Both the position numbers and the translations under genes were made by a program. Source: a virus (lineage: Duplodnaviria; Heunggongvirae; Uroviricota; Caudoviricetes). Taken from it: a DNA stretch of 7,731 bases. Below the pieces are notes generated by a model, which saw only the letters and a program-made list of their open reading frames with translations, was not told the origin of the DNA and searched no databases. Below, piece after piece: positions 1,176 through 7,731 of this stretch. The number at the start of each line of letters is the position of its first letter. The first letter of the stretch is position 1. Location: IMG/VR virus record IMGVR_UViG_2541047498_000021. The stretch is one strand, 5' to 3'.

Positions 1176-1490
1176 TTGTGTGCGGTTGCGTTGAAGTCTC
1201 CTAGCCAAAGAGTAGCGGTGACCACTCCCCGCCGATAATCTTAGTTGTTTAATTTCGTAAGCTAACTAGGCTAAAAGCTCTCTGTTGTCTGCCTGTTGTA
1301 CAATTAACAAAATGAACAACGAACTAGATATACCAACGCCAGAATGGTGCAACAAATCCCAAACAACACAGCAATGCAACAATAACATATGTTATTTTCC
1401 TCTCACGGGATTCAGTCCTGAATTCTCATAAAGCTAATCTTTTTTTAAAAACATACTGTTAGATCACATGCACTTTCTTTCTTAACATCG

Positions 1491-1518
1491 TTGACTTCGC
1501 ATGCGAAGCGTTTAAAAT
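1491..1518 (+). promoter_or_regulatory. Sigma70-type promoter for the GHKL-ATPase operon
   Basis: TTGACT at 1491-1496, a 16-bp spacer, then TAAAAT at 1513-1518. This is about 50 bp upstream of the ATG at 1571, which has a GAGAG Shine-Dalgarno-like sequence 6-7 nt before it. Confidence 0.5.
1494..1507. promoter_or_regulatory. Perfect 14-bp palindrome CTTCGCATGCGAAG inside the promoter spacer; candidate operator
   Basis: The sequence equals its own reverse complement and lies between the -35 and -10 elements of the operon promoter, where a bound dimeric protein would occlude RNA polymerase. Confidence 0.35.
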
Positions 1519-1570
1519 CAACAATTTGCACTTAAGGTATTTATTTTCCCAAACACATAGAGAGTAAATT

Positions 1571-2962
1571 ATGACTGAGAACACGACTCCAACAGCAGAC
1601 TTTAGTCCTAGTAAAAGATTTTTTGTAAGTATGCTAACTCGAGATATCGACTTAAACGATGCCATACTTGATCTGCTTGATAACTGCGTCGATGGGGCTT
1701 TACGTACAATAAAAGACACAAAAAAAACTTCAAAACCATATGAAGGATTTTATGCGAAACTTACGATTAATAAAGATGTCTTTATTATAGAAGACAATTG
1801 CGGAGGTATCCCTAAAAGCTTCCGAGAATATGCTTTTAAAATGGGACGACCCCATCAAAAAGAAGAAGAAAATGAAGGCACCGTTGGCGTCTATGGTATT
1901 GGTATGAAAAGAGCCATTTTTAAAATGGGTAGAGATTGCTCAATACAATCGAATAATCCCGATGGCGCATTCACTGTAGATATAACACCTGATTGGATCG
2001 ATGGTGATGGTTGGAAAATACCGATGCACGAGAGTGACTATGATAACAAAAATCCAACAGGCACAACTATAGAGATAAAAAAACTCCATTCTAATGTGGC
2101 ACAAAAATTTAATGAGAGCACATATCTTACTGATCTCTTTTTACAGATAAAACACTCATTGTCATTTATTATTCAAAAAGGATTTAAAATAGAATTAAAT
2201 GGAGTTGTTGTTGAACATAATCCGATTAACATCATAACTGATCATTCTAAAATAGAACCATACATATATAAAGCTAAAATAGACGATGTTGATATCGATT
2301 TAGTTGTTGGCTTCTATAAAAATTTAGAAGATGACAATGATGATGTTTTAGAAAAAAGGAGTTCTGATGATGCTGGATGGACTGTCATTTGCAATGACCG
2401 CGTTGTTCTATATTGTGATAAGACACATCTCACAGGTTGGGGCTTTGCTAATGTACCAAGGTTTCATACCCAATTTATAGCAATTTCTGGGGTTGTTCGC
2501 TTTACCAGTAAAAACCCAGAAAAATTACCAATAACAACAACGAAACGAGGTGTCGATCTTAGTTCTACATTGTACAATGATGTACGAAATAAAATGATTG
2601 AAGGGATGATGCATTTTATTCGATTCACCAATCAGTGGAAAGGTGAGCATCTTGAAGAAGGGAAAAAATTACTTAAGTCAGCTCAGTCACATGAAGCTCA
2701 ATCTTTATTTGAAATTACCCCACAATCAACTCCAGAAGATAAAAAAAATAACTGGTCCAACCCTAATAGAAACAAAAATGAGTGGCGATATACACCTAAG
2801 CTGCCTACCCCAGTAAAAAAAAGCTCTACTGTACGAATAATCTTCACCAGAGAGAAAGAAGATGTTAAAATTTTATCTAAATATTTCTTTGGACATGAAG
2901 ATGCTAGCGCTTCTGATGTGGGGATGCAATGCTTTGATACGGTGATTGAAGAGGTGAAGTGA
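1571..2962 (+). CDS. GHKL-superfamily ATPase (Bergerat fold; MORC/paraMORC-like, HATPase_c_3-type) with a C-terminal extension of about 290 aa
   Basis: 463-aa ORF. N-box LDLLDNCVDGA (residues ~33-43), G1 box IIEDNCGGIP (~73-81) and G2 box GVYGIGMKRA (~106-115) are in the canonical order and spacing. The G-x-Y-G-x-G-x-K form of the G2 box is what I associate with MORC-like ATPases. Confidence 0.8.
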   Translation: MTENTTPTADFSPSKRFFVSMLTRDIDLNDAILDLLDNCVDGALRTIKDTKKTSKPYEGFYAKLTINKDVFIIEDNCGGIPKSFREYAFKMGRPHQKEEENEGTVGVYGIGMKRAIFKMGRDCSIQSNNPDGAFTVDITPDWIDGDGWKIPMHESDYDNKNPTGTTIEIKKLHSNVAQKFNESTYLTDLFLQIKHSLSFIIQKGFKIELNGVVVEHNPINIITDHSKIEPYIYKAKIDDVDIDLVVGFYKNLEDDNDDVLEKRSSDDAGWTVICNDRVVLYCDKTHLTGWGFANVPRFHTQFIAISGVVRFTSKNPEKLPITTTKRGVDLSSTLYNDVRNKMIEGMMHFIRFTNQWKGEHLEEGKKLLKSAQSHEAQSLFEITPQSTPEDKKNNWSNPNRNKNEWRYTPKLPTPVKKSSTVRIIFTREKEDVKILSKYFFGHEDASASDVGMQCFDTVIEEVK

Positions 2963-3951
2963 TGTCTGGACAATACATTCCCTATCACTTAAGGCATAAT
3001 AAGTCTATTGATAGAGAGATTTTTCTCGAAAGCCTAAACCTCTTAAGCAAAAGACTAAATATTCAAGAATATACATATATAGGTTTTGGTGGTCCGATGC
3101 TTGAAGATTTTAGAATCATGCATAATCGTATCGCTCTTTCTGATATGATTTCTCTCGAAGAACAAGAGTCTACTCACATCAGACAAAAATATAATTTGCC
3201 TTATAATTGTATTGATTGTAAGCTAATATCAGCTCATGACTTTATTCTTGATTATAGTTTTTCTAAACCATCAATAACATGGTTAGACTATGCCTCCCCG
3301 AAAAAAATACAAACGGATCTAGATGATATACACTTACTAAGTACTAAAGTAAGCTCTTTTGATATTTTGAAGGTCACCTTCCCCATAAATCCTAGTTCTT
3401 ATTACCAACGTAGAGTTGGAGAAAGTTTAGATATTTTTAAAGAAGCTTTTATTAATTCATTAAAATCATTGCTTGGGAAAAAGTATCTTGATTTTAATCT
3501 TCAGATATCAAATGCAGATCTTTCAGATCGTAAGATTAAAGCTCTTTTAATACGAATTATTACAAACGCTTTTAGATCAGCAATAGAACGTGGTCTTTCA
3601 GGACGTAAGGATAAGATTCAGTATTACCCATTATCCTTAAATCAATATAATGATGGCAGTCATACCATGTTGACAATATCAGGTTTTTTCTCCTCAGAAC
3701 AAGAATATATAGAGTTATCTAAGGCATGCGACCTTTCTAACTGGCAATTTTATTCAACAAATTGGGAAGACGTGCAAGAAATAGCAATACCAACACTAAC
3801 AATTAAAGAAAAGATAAATTTAGATAGTAAACTGCCTGATAAAGAAGCATATCAGGCAGCCGCTGAAGAGTTCTCTTTAAACGAAAATGAACGGGATAAC
3901 TATTATAAATACTATAGGTTATACCCTAACTTCCAAAGAATTATGGTTTAA
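2959..3951 (+). CDS. Protein of unknown function, translationally coupled to the GHKL ATPase; candidate effector (possible degenerate PD-(D/E)xK-like core, unverified)
   Basis: 330-aa ORF. The track start is GTG at 2959, but the likely real start is ATG at 2962, which overlaps the upstream TGA (TGATG). I recognise no family. The N-terminal region has an E-rich helix, then YTYIGFGGP, then IALSD, then CIDCK, which is compatible with, but does not prove, a PD-(D/E)xK nuclease core. Confidence 0.75.
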   Translation: MMSGQYIPYHLRHNKSIDREIFLESLNLLSKRLNIQEYTYIGFGGPMLEDFRIMHNRIALSDMISLEEQESTHIRQKYNLPYNCIDCKLISAHDFILDYSFSKPSITWLDYASPKKIQTDLDDIHLLSTKVSSFDILKVTFPINPSSYYQRRVGESLDIFKEAFINSLKSLLGKKYLDFNLQISNADLSDRKIKALLIRIITNAFRSAIERGLSGRKDKIQYYPLSLNQYNDGSHTMLTISGFFSSEQEYIELSKACDLSNWQFYSTNWEDVQEIAIPTLTIKEKINLDSKLPDKEAYQAAAEEFSLNENERDNYYKYYRLYPNFQRIMV

Positions 3952-5070
3952 ATATTCGGGCTGTACTCTTTTATTTAATAAATTGTACAGCCCCTTTAAT
4001 ATATATTCAGCAACTATTGGTGACACGCTATTTCCTATTTGTCTGAAACTATGCCATTTAGTTACATGAAAGCGAAACCAATCAGGGAAGCCTTGTAATC
4101 TAGCAGCTTCTCTTGGTGTAATCACTCTTGGATGATAAGGGTGGATCGGCCTGACGGCTTGAAAGCTTCCTTTATCTCTAGCGGTTCCCGCCCTTAAAGT
4201 CGGGCAAAAACCATTTGGATCTAATCTTGTAGATCTTGAAATTTTATCAGTTTCCCCAAAAGATAAGGAAGCATAACGCTCTTGGACGATTTTGCTATGT
4301 AATGTTCCGGTACATCCAGATATGATATTATTTTTTAACTTAGCGATCGATTCTGTATCACCAACATTCCGAGGGATCTGCCCCCATAATTTTTCATAAA
4401 ATCCCCCTTTTCGATCTTTTTTAATTGTTCGCCAACTCTCAGAGTCTGATTGCCAATTGGCATCGATAATATCTGGTAATCCATACAAAGCATCTTTTAC
4501 AGTAACCGGATCAATCATTTTAGGCATAAATACTTCATCTGAAATATCAAGCTTCAATGATTTTTTTACACCGATAAAAAAATATCTAGTTCGAATAGTT
4601 GGAGCACCATAATCAGATGCTTTTACCTTGATGGGATCAAGAATATCATAATCACCGCTAACCAAATTAAATGCTTTATTTCTAATGCCAGAATATTTCT
4701 CTTGCATAATACCTGGAACATTTTCTGCCAAAAAGAATAATGGCTGTAATTCTGATACTAAACGGTAGAAATGCATGTAAAGCTGATTCCTGCTATCATC
4801 AGGATTCCCCTTGCCTATTGAACTAAATCCTTGGCACGGAGGACCGCCAATAATACCATCTATGGGCATATCGTTTTTAAAAAAACCCTTAATTATTTCT
4901 GCATTTAGTAAAGAAACATCTTCTTGGACGTGCAAACTTCTTGGAAAATTAATTGCGTGAGTATTAATAGCATGTTGATCAATTTCAACTGCCATTTTAA
5001 CATCAAATCCAGCACGTGCAGCACCAAGACTTAGACCTCCAACGCCAGAAAACAAATCTATTACATTCAT
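3919..5070 (-). CDS. DNA (cytosine-5)-methyltransferase
   Basis: 383-aa ORF with the canonical C5-methyltransferase motifs in order: motif I DLFSGVGG, motif IV GGPPCQGFS (catalytic Cys), motif VI ENV (FFLAENVPG), motif VIII-like TIRTRYFF, a variable region of ~130 aa (target-recognition domain), then RLQGFPDWF and motif X GNSVSP. Confidence 0.9.
   Translation of the reverse strand: MNVIDLFSGVGGLSLGAARAGFDVKMAVEIDQHAINTHAINFPRSLHVQEDVSLLNAEIIKGFFKNDMPIDGIIGGPPCQGFSSIGKGNPDDSRNQLYMHFYRLVSELQPLFFLAENVPGIMQEKYSGIRNKAFNLVSGDYDILDPIKVKASDYGAPTIRTRYFFIGVKKSLKLDISDEVFMPKMIDPVTVKDALYGLPDIIDANWQSDSESWRTIKKDRKGGFYEKLWGQIPRNVGDTESIAKLKNNIISGCTGTLHSKIVQERYASLSFGETDKISRSTRLDPNGFCPTLRAGTARDKGSFQAVRPIHPYHPRVITPREAARLQGFPDWFRFHVTKWHSFRQIGNSVSPIVAEYILKGLYNLLNKRVQPEYLNHNSLEVRV
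3958..4005 (+). terminator. Probable intrinsic terminator of the plus-strand operon, embedded in the 3' coding end of the convergent methyltransferase gene
   Basis: 9-bp stem GGGCTGTAC (3958-3966) pairs with GTACAGCCC (3985-3993); the loop is AT-rich with internal pairing potential; the stem is followed by CTTTAATATATATT. It begins 7 nt after the TAA at 3949-3951. Confidence 0.4.
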
Positions 5071-5095
5071 ATAGTTGCAACGTCTCTTATTAGTT

Positions 5096-5132
5096 TCTAT
5101 GTATTATAACACAACTGTTCTTGATGTTTTAA
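5096..5132 (-). promoter_or_regulatory. Candidate extended -10 promoter for the methyltransferase gene
   Basis: The minus strand reads TTAAAA (plus 5127-5132), an 18-bp spacer, then TGT-TATAAT (hexamer at plus 5103-5108 with a TG two bases upstream). This is about 26-30 nt upstream of the ATG at 5070. Confidence 0.45.
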
Positions 5133-5332
5133 CCCCATAAGATAACCTCATAAAGGCTATCCCTTGAAAATACCGGATCGCATAAATTTAATCTTTCAAA
5201 ACTACTTGTCTATTAATCGAGCAATTTAAGGTTGTTTTAGTCATGTCGATACCGACATAGTTAACTAAACCCATTTCATCGTCCAACAAATGGGGGTAAT
5301 ACACTTTGATTTATAGTCGGGTGGGTTTTTCT

Positions 5333-5368
5333 CTATCTGCCTTTGGTGTTCATGCCCAAGGCAGATAG
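5333..5368. repeat. Near-perfect inverted repeat (about 13-bp arms, 9-nt loop) at the cassette/phage junction
   Basis: CTATCTGCCTTTGG (5333-5346) is the reverse complement of CCAAGGCAGATAG (5356-5368) apart from a one-base bulge. No U-tract follows on either strand, so it is not a canonical intrinsic terminator. Confidence 0.5.
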
Positions 5369-5501
5369 CCTCAAGCACCCGCAGCAATTCTACTTAACTA
5401 TCCTTTTCCCGCAAACCGTTTTTATCCCCAGCGGCAAATCGAATACACCACCAGCGCCACCGCCATCGCAATTCCTACCGTTGTGAATGCTTCAGGCCAG
5501 G

Positions 5502-6059
5502 TCATTGATTCACCTCCTGCGGCGGTTCTGGTAGCGACATCCAGTGGGTTGCTTGCCTAAGATCATTACCCGGACTAACTGCTATACCTCCGCGCCGGAA
5601 CGTGCCTCCGAGATAGCGTGCGGAATATATTAATGGCCCAGCCTCGCTATCGATATTCATCGAAATAAGCACGTTCTGGCTCTTTTCAGGCATTCGCTCA
5701 GTACAGCTTATCCAGCCATCCAGAGTTATCGGAGATCTGGTTGACGTTTCCGAGATTTCCCGAAAATTGTTGGTTGACGAATTCTTATTTTCCCGAAAGT
5801 TTCCGGCCTGAAGCATGGCGACGCGGCAGGCGTTCCAGCCATCAGCATATGTTTTAGTTACACCGTCGAGATGGCAGGTAAGCAAATCCATTTCATCAGG
5901 CACTACCATTGCTATCGGCTCTGCTTCCAGTGATGCCAGCGCGATACGAAACACATTAGCCAGCAGGCTGTCTGAAGACTTGTTATCGTGCGCCGAGTCG
6001 CTCAGGAAGCCTGTGATGTATGATTTAATCTCCGCGCGTTCTCTGGTAATAGTGCTCAT
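5502..6059 (-). CDS. Phage protein with a C-terminal DUF551 domain
   Basis: 185-aa ORF. The C-terminal segment GWISCTERMPE ... ATHWMSLPEPP matches the W-I-x-x-x-E-x-x-P ... THWMPLPEPP signature I recall for DUF551 in enterobacterial prophages. GC-normal and tightly packed with its neighbour. Confidence 0.75.
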   Translation of the reverse strand: MSTITRERAEIKSYITGFLSDSAHDNKSSDSLLANVFRIALASLEAEPIAMVVPDEMDLLTCHLDGVTKTYADGWNACRVAMLQAGNFRENKNSSTNNFREISETSTRSPITLDGWISCTERMPEKSQNVLISMNIDSEAGPLIYSARYLGGTFRRGGIAVSPGNDLRQATHWMSLPEPPQEVNQ

Positions 6060-6060
6060 A

Positions 6061-6279
6061 TCAGTTTTCCTTATACGGATTAATTTTATTGTGCAGTGCG
6101 CTGAATGATTCCCATGTCACATCGGTATATAGCTCAATAACTGGTTCAAATGTCCTTCCAATTATCCAGACCAGTAATAGCGGGGATATCGGTATCATCA
6201 ACACTATAAACAGAATGAAAAACAGAAACTCTGTTGTTCTGCTCTTTCGTGGGTAATTTTTTTCTAAATAATGTTTCAT
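6061..6279 (-). CDS. Small single-pass membrane protein (phage, function unknown)
   Basis: 72-aa ORF with one hydrophobic stretch of about 24 residues (FLFFILFIVLMIPISPLLLVWIIG). Its stop lies 1 nt from the start of the DUF551 gene. Confidence 0.5.
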   Translation of the reverse strand: MKHYLEKNYPRKSRTTEFLFFILFIVLMIPISPLLLVWIIGRTFEPVIELYTDVTWESFSALHNKINPYKEN

Positions 6280-6406
6280 TTCTTACCGCCCTTTCGGGCG
6301 GCCTCCTGATGTTCTGAGGGTGCAGGAATCCCTCCGGTTAAGGATTTAATAAAAATCGTTTCTGATTTAAATCTTCAGTATTTAGTTGTTAGTTGGTTTA
6401 TCGCCT

Positions 6407-6718
6407 TTATGCTTCAGCCTTATTTCGCAACCAGACACAAACCGGGCCATCTTCCGTATCATGAATGGAACCAATAAACCAGCCATCGCCCTCTGGTCGT
6501 TCCGGTTCCCATGCAGAAATATCAGCATCACACGCATCAAGGTCAGCACATCCTTCATCTCTGAAGCAGAGGACGTATTGAAGATTATTTTCCTCCATCC
6601 AGGCGTTAAACTCTTCCGTTGAAATATATTCCCGACCATCACAGAATTTTTCATATTCAGGATGTGTCCAGTAGCCATATCCGTCACGAACTACCGGCAT
6701 TTCTTTAATTTCACTCAC
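6407..6718 (-). CDS. Phage hypothetical protein (acidic, Cys-containing; no family recognised)
   Basis: 103-aa ORF in GC-normal DNA. Its start overlaps the stop of the upstream ORF by 8 nt, typical of phage gene packing. I chose it over the overlapping 101-aa and 78-aa alternative frames because its translation is not low-complexity. Confidence 0.55.
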   Translation of the reverse strand: MSEIKEMPVVRDGYGYWTHPEYEKFCDGREYISTEEFNAWMEENNLQYVLCFRDEGCADLDACDADISAWEPERPEGDGWFIGSIHDTEDGPVCVWLRNKAEA

Positions 6719-6938
6719 TGTTAACCTCCTGCAACGCTACACGATACGCCTTCTTTATCCACGCCTTACTGCCATATAATTTCGTCTTCATAATAAACAC
6801 ACCTGCACGACTCGCCGATATCCCCGGACAGGTTAACAGCACAGCATCCACCACACGGTTATGCTTCCGAAACTCCATTACAGTACTGCTGATAACCACC
6901 TGCCCCACCGGGCCGTAATCCTGATACAGGATTTTCAC
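6711..6938 (-). CDS. Phage hypothetical protein
   Basis: 75-aa ORF whose ends overlap both neighbours by a few nt, consistent with coupled translation in a phage operon. No family recognised. Confidence 0.45.
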   Translation of the reverse strand: MKILYQDYGPVGQVVISSTVMEFRKHNRVVDAVLLTCPGISASRAGVFIMKTKLYGSKAWIKKAYRVALQEVNSE

Positions 6939-7216
6939 GCAGACACCCTCCTGTCGAAATAAACGTAGTTATTCACTATGCGCAGCGGCATGCCTAATTT
7001 TCTGGCAATTTCCCTTCTTTGCATGCCTCTCTGATGCAGTTGCCGCGCCAGCTCAATATCACGCTGAGAATATTTTGCCGACGGGTGAAAATCACCACGT
7101 AACATCATGCTGATGCCCAGCTCCCGTGCCTTCGTTCTCACTGCCGCTTCAGTTCGTCCGATAAGTGCGCCAACGCTTTTTACCTTCATCGTTCCCGCAC
7201 ACTGCCGGAGTATCAT
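6935..7216 (-). CDS. Putative helix-turn-helix DNA-binding protein (phage regulator-like)
   Basis: The track ORF runs 6935-7339, but its first ~40 codons are an Arg-rich out-of-frame read through the upstream gene. The likely start is ATG at 7216 (MILRQ...) or 7189 (MKVKS...). The product has two HTH-like segments, SVGALIGRTEAAVRTKARELGI and QRGMQRREIARKLGMPLRIV. Confidence 0.5.
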   Translation of the reverse strand: MILRQCAGTMKVKSVGALIGRTEAAVRTKARELGISMMLRGDFHPSAKYSQRDIELARQLHQRGMQRREIARKLGMPLRIVNNYVYFDRRVSA

Positions 7217-7248
7217 GATTTCCGCCCGGCACCACGTCTTCCACCCAC

Positions 7249-7731
7249 TCACCGCTGCTGTTCTCTGGTGGCGGTAATATCCCGGAGAATATCCCGGCAC
7301 TTGTTCAGCTCCCGCAGCGCGGCGCAGACTCGCTCCCACTTCTGAACCTGACCTTTTGCCCGGCGCAGCTCGCGGTTAGCCACATGCAGCGATGGTAAAA
7401 TCAGACCATCCGGATGCTTTCTGGTGAACGACGGCTGTGACTGCACTGTGACCGCCACACTTTCCGTTTTTATTTCTTCCTGTGTTTCCGCTTCCCCGAC
7501 TGGTAACGCAACACCTGCTGGCTGAGGAAAGGCTTTACCATCCGTTTCCGTTATGGATGCGGCTTTCGGCTCTGCCGGTAAATCAGCGCCCGGTATGCAG
7601 TACCGAAATTTACCGCCCTGATTCACGCGAATCAGACGCCCTTTGCTGATTGCCATGGCCAGTGATGAATTCGCCCGGCGGGAGGTAATCCCGAACATCA
7701 GTGCCAGCTCATCCGCCGTTTGTGGGCCATG
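7249..7731 (-). CDS. Phage protein, 5' end beyond the right edge of the window; N-terminal HTH-like segment and coiled-coil-like C-terminus
   Basis: The track gives 7249-7698, but the frame stays open upstream of the ATG at 7698 to the window edge (…[36 protein letters not shown]…), so the true start is probably outside the window. The C-terminus (…[41 protein letters not shown]) looks like a genuine coding frame. Confidence 0.55.

Follow-up and report, generated by a model that had tools for sequence, protein, structure and literature searches.

We analyzed the junction between two convergent transcription units in a 7,731-nt stretch of DNA (the window) from a virus of the class Caudoviricetes (IMG/VR record IMGVR_UViG_2541047498_000021). 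A Dcm-type C5 DNA cytosine methyltransferase (MTase) gene on the minus strand (3919–5070) meets, tail to tail, a plus-strand pair of genes coding for a GHKL ATPase (1571–2962) and a protein of family PF20553 (2959–3951), and the two units share 33 bp of coding sequence. Two stem-loops were found at this junction, HP1 on the plus strand (3958–3993) and HP2 on the minus strand (3830–3861). Comparison with related loci indicates that they are probably the 3'-end-forming or -protecting stem-loops of the two units, each placed inside the other gene, and that the double coding would be a by-product of compaction.

Stem-loops at the junction

Homologous loci of the PF20553 gene were collected from four sources (one genome per species, exact-protein look-ups, viral contigs, and metagenome contigs) and the gene order of all loci was surveyed by phmmer. 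None of the relatives from the scan of one genome per species exceeded 36% identity; closer ones that were informative came from the exact-protein look-ups and from the viral and metagenome scans. The copies in Escherichia coli genomes could not be used for covariation analysis because they are all identical. The clade of the window comprises 11–12 distinct sequences with PF20553 protein identities from 100% down to 58%. Its members are found in lambdoid prophages of differing make-up and at a chromosomal site beside purB and umuDC.

HP1 starts 6 nt past the stop codon of the PF20553 gene and lies inside Dcm codons 360–371 of 383. Its arms (3958–3966, GGGCTGTAC; 3985–3993, GTACAGCCC) form a perfect 9-bp stem around an 18-nt A/T loop, which three inner pairs reduce to 8 nt. 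The predicted free energy (ΔG) is −17.2 kcal/mol, with z-scores of −3.55 on the plus strand and −4.06 on the minus strand, and none of 200 shuffled sequences was as stable. The stem-loop is followed by a U/A-rich tail, CUUUAAUAUAUAUUC (3994–4008, plus strand; window letters CTTTAATATATATTC), which is antisense to Dcm codons A-E-Y-I-L-K. The initial annotation, made from the window alone, had described a hairpin at this place as the only terminator-like structure of the plus-strand operon and had located it inside the MTase reading frame. Both statements hold, as HP1 falls within the last 24 Dcm codons and is the only strong plus-strand structure in the 430 nt past the stop.

HP1 is the strongest fold downstream of the PF20553 stop in every clade member. 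Across 11 sequences the stem measures 9–15 bp with ΔG of −15 to −29 kcal/mol and begins 6–9 nt past the PF20553 stop, while the sequences themselves differ. In a 14-pair helix, 90.1% of cells are paired and double-sided changes occur in 10 of the 14 pairs. The covariation score was 0.547 vs. 0.282 for shuffled alignments, a score reached by none of 500 shuffles, and sliding the partner by 1–3 columns gave 0.18 at most. Wobble pairs are strongly polarized: 18 cells are G·U on the plus strand and one is A·C (that is, G·U on the minus strand). Predicted stability also favors the plus-strand fold in 10 of 11 sequences. Covariation and wobble polarity fit an RNA element of the GHKL-PF20553 transcript, as had been assumed when the hairpin was assigned to the plus-strand operon, and argue against a bidirectional or minus-strand role and against a DNA operator. 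Judged by these comparisons, HP1 is under selection. Relative to all other clade members, 3 nt are deleted in frame from the HP1 loop (3967–3984) in the E. coli lineage; this is the sole indel in the junction across the clade.

The earlier account of the hairpin was right about HP1 and overlooked its reciprocal on the minus strand (3861–3830). HP2 lies 58 nt past the Dcm stop, inside PF20553 codons KLPDKEAYQAA. Its arms (3850–3859 and 3832–3841) form a perfect 10-bp stem extended by two G·U pairs, with an 8-nt loop; on the minus strand UUUACUAUCUAAAUUUAUCUUUUC then follows, and the tail, UUUACUAU, is succeeded by another U-run 15–20 nt downstream. In the window, HP2 has a ΔG of −18.7 and a z-score of −3.74. 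Across the clade the stem is 10–14 bp, ΔG ranges from −16 to −23, and the loop of 4–8 nt is as short as in ordinary terminators. HP2 is the strongest minus-strand fold within 500 nt past the Dcm stop in 11 of 11 clade members. Pairing was found in 85.7% of cells and double-sided changes in 5 of 14 pairs; covariation was 0.276 vs. 0.183 for shuffled alignments (2 of 500 shuffles reached the score), and slid versions gave at most 0.167. The wobbles again favor one strand, with 19 G·U cells on the minus strand vs. 4 A·C cells. HP1 and HP2 both have a stable G/C-containing stem downstream of a stop codon, compensatory changes beyond the controls, and G·U pairs biased to the strand of their own transcript.

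The strand bias bears on whether the repeats act as DNA. A protein operator, a recombination site, a cruciform, or simply a chance product of A/T-rich DNA could be imagined, given that gene order around the junction has been reshuffled many times in the family and that the island holds many short A/T palindromes. Covariation amid changing sequence speaks against a sequence-specific operator, however, and strand-biased G·U pairs point to a nucleic acid that is single-stranded and of set polarity; chance is disfavored by the z-scores (−3.5 to −4) and by conservation over 11 sequences. We regard this explanation as extremely unlikely.

A second possibility is that HP1 acts on the minus strand or in both directions, either as an attenuator within dcm that gives a non-stop mRNA or as a terminator of the phage early transcript of the nin-region type. 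The window stem is a perfect palindrome with its z-score of −4.06 on the minus strand, the U count of the minus-strand tail equals that of the plus-strand tail in several members, and the phage early operon passes through the island. But the 18 plus-strand G·U pairs would be C·A mismatches on the minus strand, with one case reversed, and the minus-strand fold is the weaker one in 10 of 11 sequences. In addition, 12 codons separate the hairpin from the Dcm stop, clade members are also found elsewhere than in prophages, and the minus strand has a hairpin of its own in HP2. A minus-strand or bidirectional role for HP1 is very unlikely on this evidence.

HP1 and HP2 could also be RNA elements with another task, for example in binding proteins encoded by the system itself, in RNase processing, or in translation. 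Their long loops and poor U-tracts are unlike those of textbook terminators, an Rfam search of 3700–4300 gave no match, and conservation of structure with divergent sequence would fit any structured RNA element. Such a task is quite unlikely, since each hairpin keeps a fixed place past the stop of its own strand (6–9 nt for HP1, ~58 nt for HP2), the HP1 loop sequence is not conserved, and ordinary intergenic terminator-like hairpins replace HP1 and HP2 in two sister lineages (L073 and L074).

We therefore return to HP1 and HP2 as 3'-end elements, the reading that we consider probable. Folding in the plus-strand RNA just past the PF20553 stop, HP1 would act as a weak factor-independent terminator, as a barrier to 3' exonucleases, or as both, and so form or protect the 3' end of the GHKL-PF20553 message; HP2 would have the same role for the dcm mRNA. 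A role as an exonuclease block after Rho-dependent termination appears equally possible. The hairpins would hold each polymerase to the last ~75–120 nt of the opposite gene and would leave an RNA-RNA 3' overlap of ~165 nt between the two mRNAs (3830 to ~4000).

Intrinsic (Rho-independent) terminators, some of them bidirectional, can be shared by convergent genes or lie between them. The junction resembles these terminators in having a G/C-based stem-loop a few nt past a stop codon, and the tract behind the stem contains U. It differs from shared terminators in that the window has two strand-specific stem-loops, each in the coding 3' end of the opposite gene.

Several points weigh against the 3'-end reading. 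Neither hairpin is a canonical intrinsic terminator, and termination efficiency may therefore be partial. The U-tracts are short (3–5 U), and the predicted HP1 loops of 7–13 nt across the clade reach beyond the 3–8 nt of short-loop terminators. The HP1 tail has 4–5 U in its first 8 nt in most lineages and no run of ≥6 U; only 2 U were counted in L067, where the predicted fold has an outer helix, so that the tail was counted from further out. A simple terminator scan called neither HP1 nor HP2, and it missed HP1 owing to the over-long loop and the lack of a T-run. In the window itself, the perfect palindrome of HP1 folds equally well on both strands. The compared sequences are phylogenetically related, so that the shuffle controls overstate significance, and the support for HP2 (2 of 500 shuffles; 19 vs. 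4 wobbles) is weaker than that for HP1, though in the same direction. Finally, some selection for the Dcm frame and stop is possible, since the PF20553 codon opposite this stop (Leu320) is always TTA or CTA and the indel in the HP1 loop is in frame.

The 33-bp overlap and the Dcm tail

The plus-strand open reading frame (ORF) ends at 3951 and the minus-strand ORF ends at 3919 in a six-frame ORF list, which bears out the 33-bp coding overlap (3919–3951, both strands) that had been reported; RefSeq annotates the identical overlap in E. coli O157:H7 strains Sakai (ECs_1954/ECs_1953) and EDL933. The two frames run through the overlap in register over 11 codon positions, reading L-Y-P-N-F-Q-R-I-M-V-stop on the plus strand and L-N-H-N-S-L-E-V-R-V-stop on the minus strand. 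The overlap is exactly 33 bp in every clade member and was kept in relatives at 89, 68, 67, 63, 61, and 58% identity. The convergent geometry with no gap, on which the initial annotation had built, is thus real and conserved, and the two units must give RNAs that overlap at their 3' ends.

Amino acid conservation within the overlap was seen in the PF20553 frame only. That frame reads YPNFQR(I/V)(M/I)V, and the C-terminus of the protein, YYRLYPNFQRIMV, is conserved family-wide in alignments. Variation in the overlap sits at third codon positions of PF20553, where it is synonymous, and alters the Dcm tail, which ends in SLEVRV, ALEIRV, SLKIGV, or PLEIRI in different members.

The C-terminal extension of Dcm (residues ~366–383; 3919–3975, minus strand) crosses the HP1 loop and left arm and enters the PF20553 3' end. 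Dcm proteins end 16–22 residues after the GNSV motif in non-overlapping relatives vs. 28–35 residues in overlapping ones, and the Pfam DNA_methylase match stops at residue 361. The sequence of the extension varies outside the residues that are fixed by the hairpin or by the frame on the other strand. Recurrent residues occur in two places: in the hairpin arms, where CTG (L361)-TAC pairs with GTA-CAG (Q370), and in the last codons, which are antisense to the conserved PF20553 C-terminus. Dcm appears to finish in a run-on tail of ~18 codons, and the 33-bp overlap looks like a by-product in which this tail is bound by the codon constraints of the partner. Under the 3'-end reading, the Dcm ORF would be functionally over near residue 365 and would then read on through HP1 up to the antisense of the Leu320 codon TTA/CTA; the tail would be a passenger and the double coding a result of compaction. 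From the natural length variation of the homologs, Dcm residues ~366 to 383 are predicted to be dispensable. Truncation directly after GNSVSP would probably not be neutral, because the helix that follows this motif is conserved.

Tail-to-tail overlaps are found in bacterial genomes where one ORF runs on to the first antisense stop. The window follows this pattern, with a Dcm stop that is complementary to a Leu codon (TTA/CTA) on the other strand. It differs from ordinary overlaps in two respects: the overlap keeps its length of 33 bp among sequences as distant as 58% protein identity, and the run-on part of Dcm must also encode an RNA hairpin of the other strand. The Dcm stop TAA (3919–3921) is antisense to the Leu320 codon TTA of PF20553. 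All 12 sequences have TTA or CTA at this position, compared with 52% of Leu codons overall, and if the stop were lost the next antisense stop would come 5–55 codons further on. Selection to keep the Dcm stop by way of Leu320 is only suggestive, as the lineages are related and the neighboring CAA codon is equally invariant.

Gene orders and history of the junction

Four gene orders were found among the surveyed loci. The convergent order GHKL>PF20553> <Dcm occurs in 65 loci, many of them redundant E. coli copies; 27 loci have the co-directional order Dcm>GHKL>PF20553, seven have GHKL>PF20553>Dcm, and one is divergent. Convergent junctions are nearly always tight, with overlaps of 50, 47, 40, 33, 18, and 6 bp and gaps of 1, 1, 6, 9, 11, 12, 28, 33, 58, and 86 bp.

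One intergenic hairpin each is found in the sister lineages L073 and L074, where gaps of 58 and 28 bp, respectively, separate the genes. These hairpins have exactly the form of an intrinsic terminator, that of L074 being the textbook arrangement of A-tract, stem, and T-tract. HP2 was looked for in both lineages and is absent, and their Dcm proteins end 17–18 aa after GNSV. The simplest history would start from an ancestral intergenic terminator, after which compaction would have put each 3' stem-loop into the coding end of the other gene. A general hairpin directly past the PF20553 stop in all gene orders was also considered and was rejected; 7 of 44 other loci exceeded the internal controls.

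The clades with 40- or 50-bp overlaps (L012, L017, L020, L021, and L089–L097) have no HP1. Another stem of 9–12 bp lies ~27 nt past the PF20553 stop in these loci and joins the Dcm codons for GNS (GGTAACAGC) and MLLP (GCTGTTACC). It shows two covarying pairs, one of which changes from C-G to T-A through substitutions that are synonymous in both codons. In this stem 91.7% of cells pair and most pairs are invariant, which gives weak support for a conserved structure.

Transcriptional coupling of the two units

Since each 3' end is expected to lie beyond the other, the two mRNAs should share ~165 complementary nt, which keeps alive the idea of antisense coupling put forward in the initial annotation. 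On that account the convergent layout with zero gap is itself a selected regulator: polymerase collision and/or the ~165-nt RNA duplex would negatively couple dcm and GHKL-PF20553 and set their ratio, and the duplex of complementary 3' ends could be a substrate of RNase III. Tight or overlapping tail-to-tail junctions do recur in many lineages of the family, and with two strand-specific hairpins, each past the other, in place of one shared bidirectional terminator, a long RNA overlap is obligatory. There is precedent in fst RNAI/RNAII and bsrG/SR4 (the latter with a 123-bp overlap and RNase III), which regulate toxin genes (PMC3874152), and antisense control has also been described for EcoRI (PMC3141266). 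On the other hand, the 27 co-directional loci and the two further gene orders show that convergence is not required, sister lineages have a plain intergenic hairpin, conserved stop-proximal hairpins would serve to stop read-through, and there is no toxin or nuclease identifiable by Pfam, PADLOC, or predicted folds whose dose would need to be balanced. We consider coupling unlikely, although less so than the other alternatives to the 3'-end reading.

The resemblance to the fst RNAI/RNAII and bsrG/SR4 pairs includes convergent promoters, a 3' overlap with terminator stem-loops, and potential duplex-dependent decay; the 3' overlaps of those pairs measure 35–123 nt (PMC3874152). In those pairs an mRNA faces a small antisense RNA, and effects have been demonstrated, whereas the window has two protein-coding mRNAs with no toxin identified, and any effect is a prediction.

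Two parts of the initial proposal do not fit these results. The layout had been said to invite transcription into the opposite gene; a conserved stop-proximal hairpin would limit read-through into dcm instead. Collision had also been offered as a built-in way of balancing the system, which it cannot be in general, as the convergent arrangement is one of four gene orders. The junction arrangement is an ordinary consequence of the compaction of a mobile island and would not surprise a specialist. It does provide a natural example of selection on RNA structure over protein-coding sequence of the opposite strand: compensatory changes in HP1 cost amino acid changes in the Dcm tail, predicted to be dispensable, and those in HP2 cost changes even in the partner protein. 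The analysis also maps the expected 3' ends of both island transcripts in E. coli O157:H7. The larger question is the function of the widespread triad of Dcm, MORC-like GHKL ATPase, and PF20553 protein.

The three genes and their products

The first gene of the plus-strand pair (1571–2962; ECs_1955 in Sakai) codes for a MORC/Hsp90-like GHKL ATPase of 463 aa with GHKL and transducer domains (Pfam PF13589, E-value 2.9e-9) and more than 5430 homologs. Its AlphaFold2 (AF2) model has a mean predicted local distance difference test score (pLDDT) of 83.5, and Foldseek matched it over ~400 residues to the ATPase modules of Hsp90, TRAP1, SMCHD1, MORC2/3, and GyrB. The second gene (2959–3951, plus strand; ECs_1954) may start at 2959 (GTG) or 2962 (ATG) and codes for a protein of 329/330 aa with a class I S-adenosylmethionine (SAM)-methyltransferase fold. 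It belongs to Pfam family PF20553 'Methyltransf_35' (E-value 2e-89, covering profile positions 1–308 of 309). The AF2 model (pLDDT 88.7) matched SAM methyltransferases in Foldseek, the best match being Trm1 (E-value 8e-6, TM-score 0.45). The minus-strand gene (3919–5070; ECs_1953) codes for the Dcm-type MTase of 383 aa (PF00145, E-value 2.6e-61), with further matches to the PADLOC model MTase_II (E-value 2e-98) and to TIGR00675.

The partner of the MTase had been taken for a putative restriction function, which these matches do not support. Pfam, NCBIfam, PADLOC, and PHROGs gave no nuclease family in the GHKL ATPase or the PF20553 protein, and no nuclease fold was found by Foldseek among the predicted folds of the two. 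PADLOC has no model for either protein, NCBIfam returned nothing for them, PHROGs lists both as of unknown function, and a sequence search of the PDB gave nothing informative. Of the two components of a type II restriction-modification (R-M) system, the DNA methyltransferase is present and a cognate restriction endonuclease was not found by the four databases or the predicted folds. By these searches, the 'partner' of this prophage Dcm is not a restriction enzyme but a GHKL ATPase together with a SAM-methyltransferase fold.

Convergent type II R-M systems such as AhdI and Esp1396I (PMC2275141, PMC2691842) have a similar geometry, in which the methyltransferase gene faces its partner operon tail to tail on a mobile island. 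The partner operon in those systems contains a restriction endonuclease and a C-protein; neither was found in the window, where the operon codes for the GHKL ATPase and the methyltransferase fold. There is also a likeness to the MORC and paraMORC ATPases, which Iyer, Abhiman & Aravind (2008) place beside cytosine methylases in R-M-like neighborhoods, a minority of which contain ATPases and methylases with no helicase (PMC2292703). The window shares with these neighborhoods a PF13589 GHKL ATPase with an S5-like transducer domain and a linkage to a DNA cytosine methylase, the Dcm linkage being present in most of 62 genome loci; the likeness is one of domain architecture and gene linkage. The PF20553 partner and the triad are not mentioned in the retrieved passages of that paper. 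A literature search for PF20553 or Methyltransf_35, and for GHKL in combination with cytosine methyltransferase and defense, found nothing on the triad. Matches in the 'paraMORC' literature were set aside, as they concern other architectures, which are fusions to Shedu-type nucleases.

The triad (1571–5070 in the window; loci L003–L064) is conserved across many phyla. It was found in Enterobacteria, Cyanobacteria, Latescibacterota, Poribacteria, Planctomycetes, and one metagenome-assembled genome of Methanoregulaceae. In some Nostoc and Scytonema loci, among others, the GHKL-PF20553 pair occurs without a nearby Dcm. Seven loci (L011, L014, L015, L019, L028, L058, and L072) have a second, longer GHKL ATPase (~550–610 aa) adjoining Dcm in addition to the GHKL-PF20553 pair. 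This distribution suggests two modules that combine, Dcm with the second GHKL ATPase and GHKL with PF20553.

Promoters, expression and the prophage setting

All three genes lie in an island of low G+C content (GC; 1250–5350), with ~0.29–0.40 GC vs. ~0.45–0.55 in the flanks by composition profile. The island sits in the early-right/nin region of a lambdoid prophage. As a 4-kb block, it is present at 100% identity in 173 of 5426 complete E. coli genomes, including O157:H7 Sakai (prophage Sp10) and EDL933; a phage collection searched at the DNA level gave no match to it. The flanking phage genes are all on the minus strand (DUF1627, DUF4014, and DUF551 on one side; DUF1367 and YbcO on the other), as they are on both flanks of the prophage-borne copies. 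The dcm gene therefore points in the direction of the phage early operon, to which the GHKL-PF20553 pair is antisense.

A consensus scan found promoter-like sites (10 of 12 positions each) upstream of both units. TTGACT-N16-TAAAAT (1491–1518, plus strand) lies 52 nt upstream of the GHKL start codon, and its TTGAC(T/A) and −10 hexamers are kept in four lineages (WIN, L065, L087, and L068). TTAAAA-N18-TATAAT with an extended TG (5103–5132, minus strand) lies upstream of the dcm start, inside the island. In a Sakai lysogen, ECs1955 and ECs1954 share one microarray profile, being high in exponential phase and dropping 2.6- to 3.2-fold at the transition (PMC2241611).

A further promoter-like site, GTGTCA-N17-TATATT (4026–3998, minus strand), lies inside the dcm 3' end just upstream of HP1 in the minus-strand sense. 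Its −10 element is formed by the EYIL codons and is missing in L067, L075, and L088, and we took it as probably due to chance.

Prophage morons are genes of deviant GC with a promoter and stop signal of their own, inserted between phage genes and expressed in the lysogen. The island corresponds to this description in its GC, in the promoter-like site kept in four lineages, in HP1, and in the co-expression of two of its genes in the lysogen, with promoter and terminator activity predicted from these features. It departs from a typical moron in that two of its three genes are antisense to the phage operon, with dcm co-oriented. In prophages, the cassette would accordingly resemble a moron that has a promoter and a stop signal of its own, lies antisense to the phage operon, and is expressed in the lysogen.

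We also considered whether the interlocked layout could be an orientation-encoded switch of an epigenetic or defense module without a nuclease, composed of Dcm, the MORC-like ATPase, and the second methyltransferase fold. HP1 and HP2 would then separate the two units in the lysogen, except for the ~165-nt RNA duplex that sets their ratio. Upon prophage induction, anti-terminated transcripts of the phage would take in dcm, overrun HP2, and continue in antisense across PF20553 and GHKL, so that the effector pair would be shut off and methylation of progeny DNA boosted. We offer this switch as speculation and think it improbable.

In Sakai Sp10 (L001, 7332–8772 and 9272–12771) the island lies between the phage replication/early genes and the Q-like antiterminator gene ECs_1958 (DUF1133); with this position, early-right phage transcripts must cross GHKL-PF20553 antisense to reach ECs_1958. 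In L071, the same island has Q on one side and the lysis genes on the other.

The right flank of the window (5300–7731) contains DUF551, DUF4014, two unknown ORFs, a helix-turn-helix protein, and DUF1627. It is arranged unlike that of Sakai Sp10 (L001, 13001–16000) or EDL933 despite the identical island, and the window seems to derive from a mosaic relative of Sp10. The right edge of the low-GC island shows terminator-like sites on the plus strand (5318–5342) and an inverted repeat (5333–5346/5355–5368; 14 nt, 93%). These features (5318–5368) may mark the boundary of the island or provide a stop signal for phage genes. Further to the right, two minus-strand ORFs (6935–7339 and 7249–7698) overlap by 91 bp on the same strand as listed, which is probably the result of an over-long GTG start call for the downstream ORF and not a true overlap.

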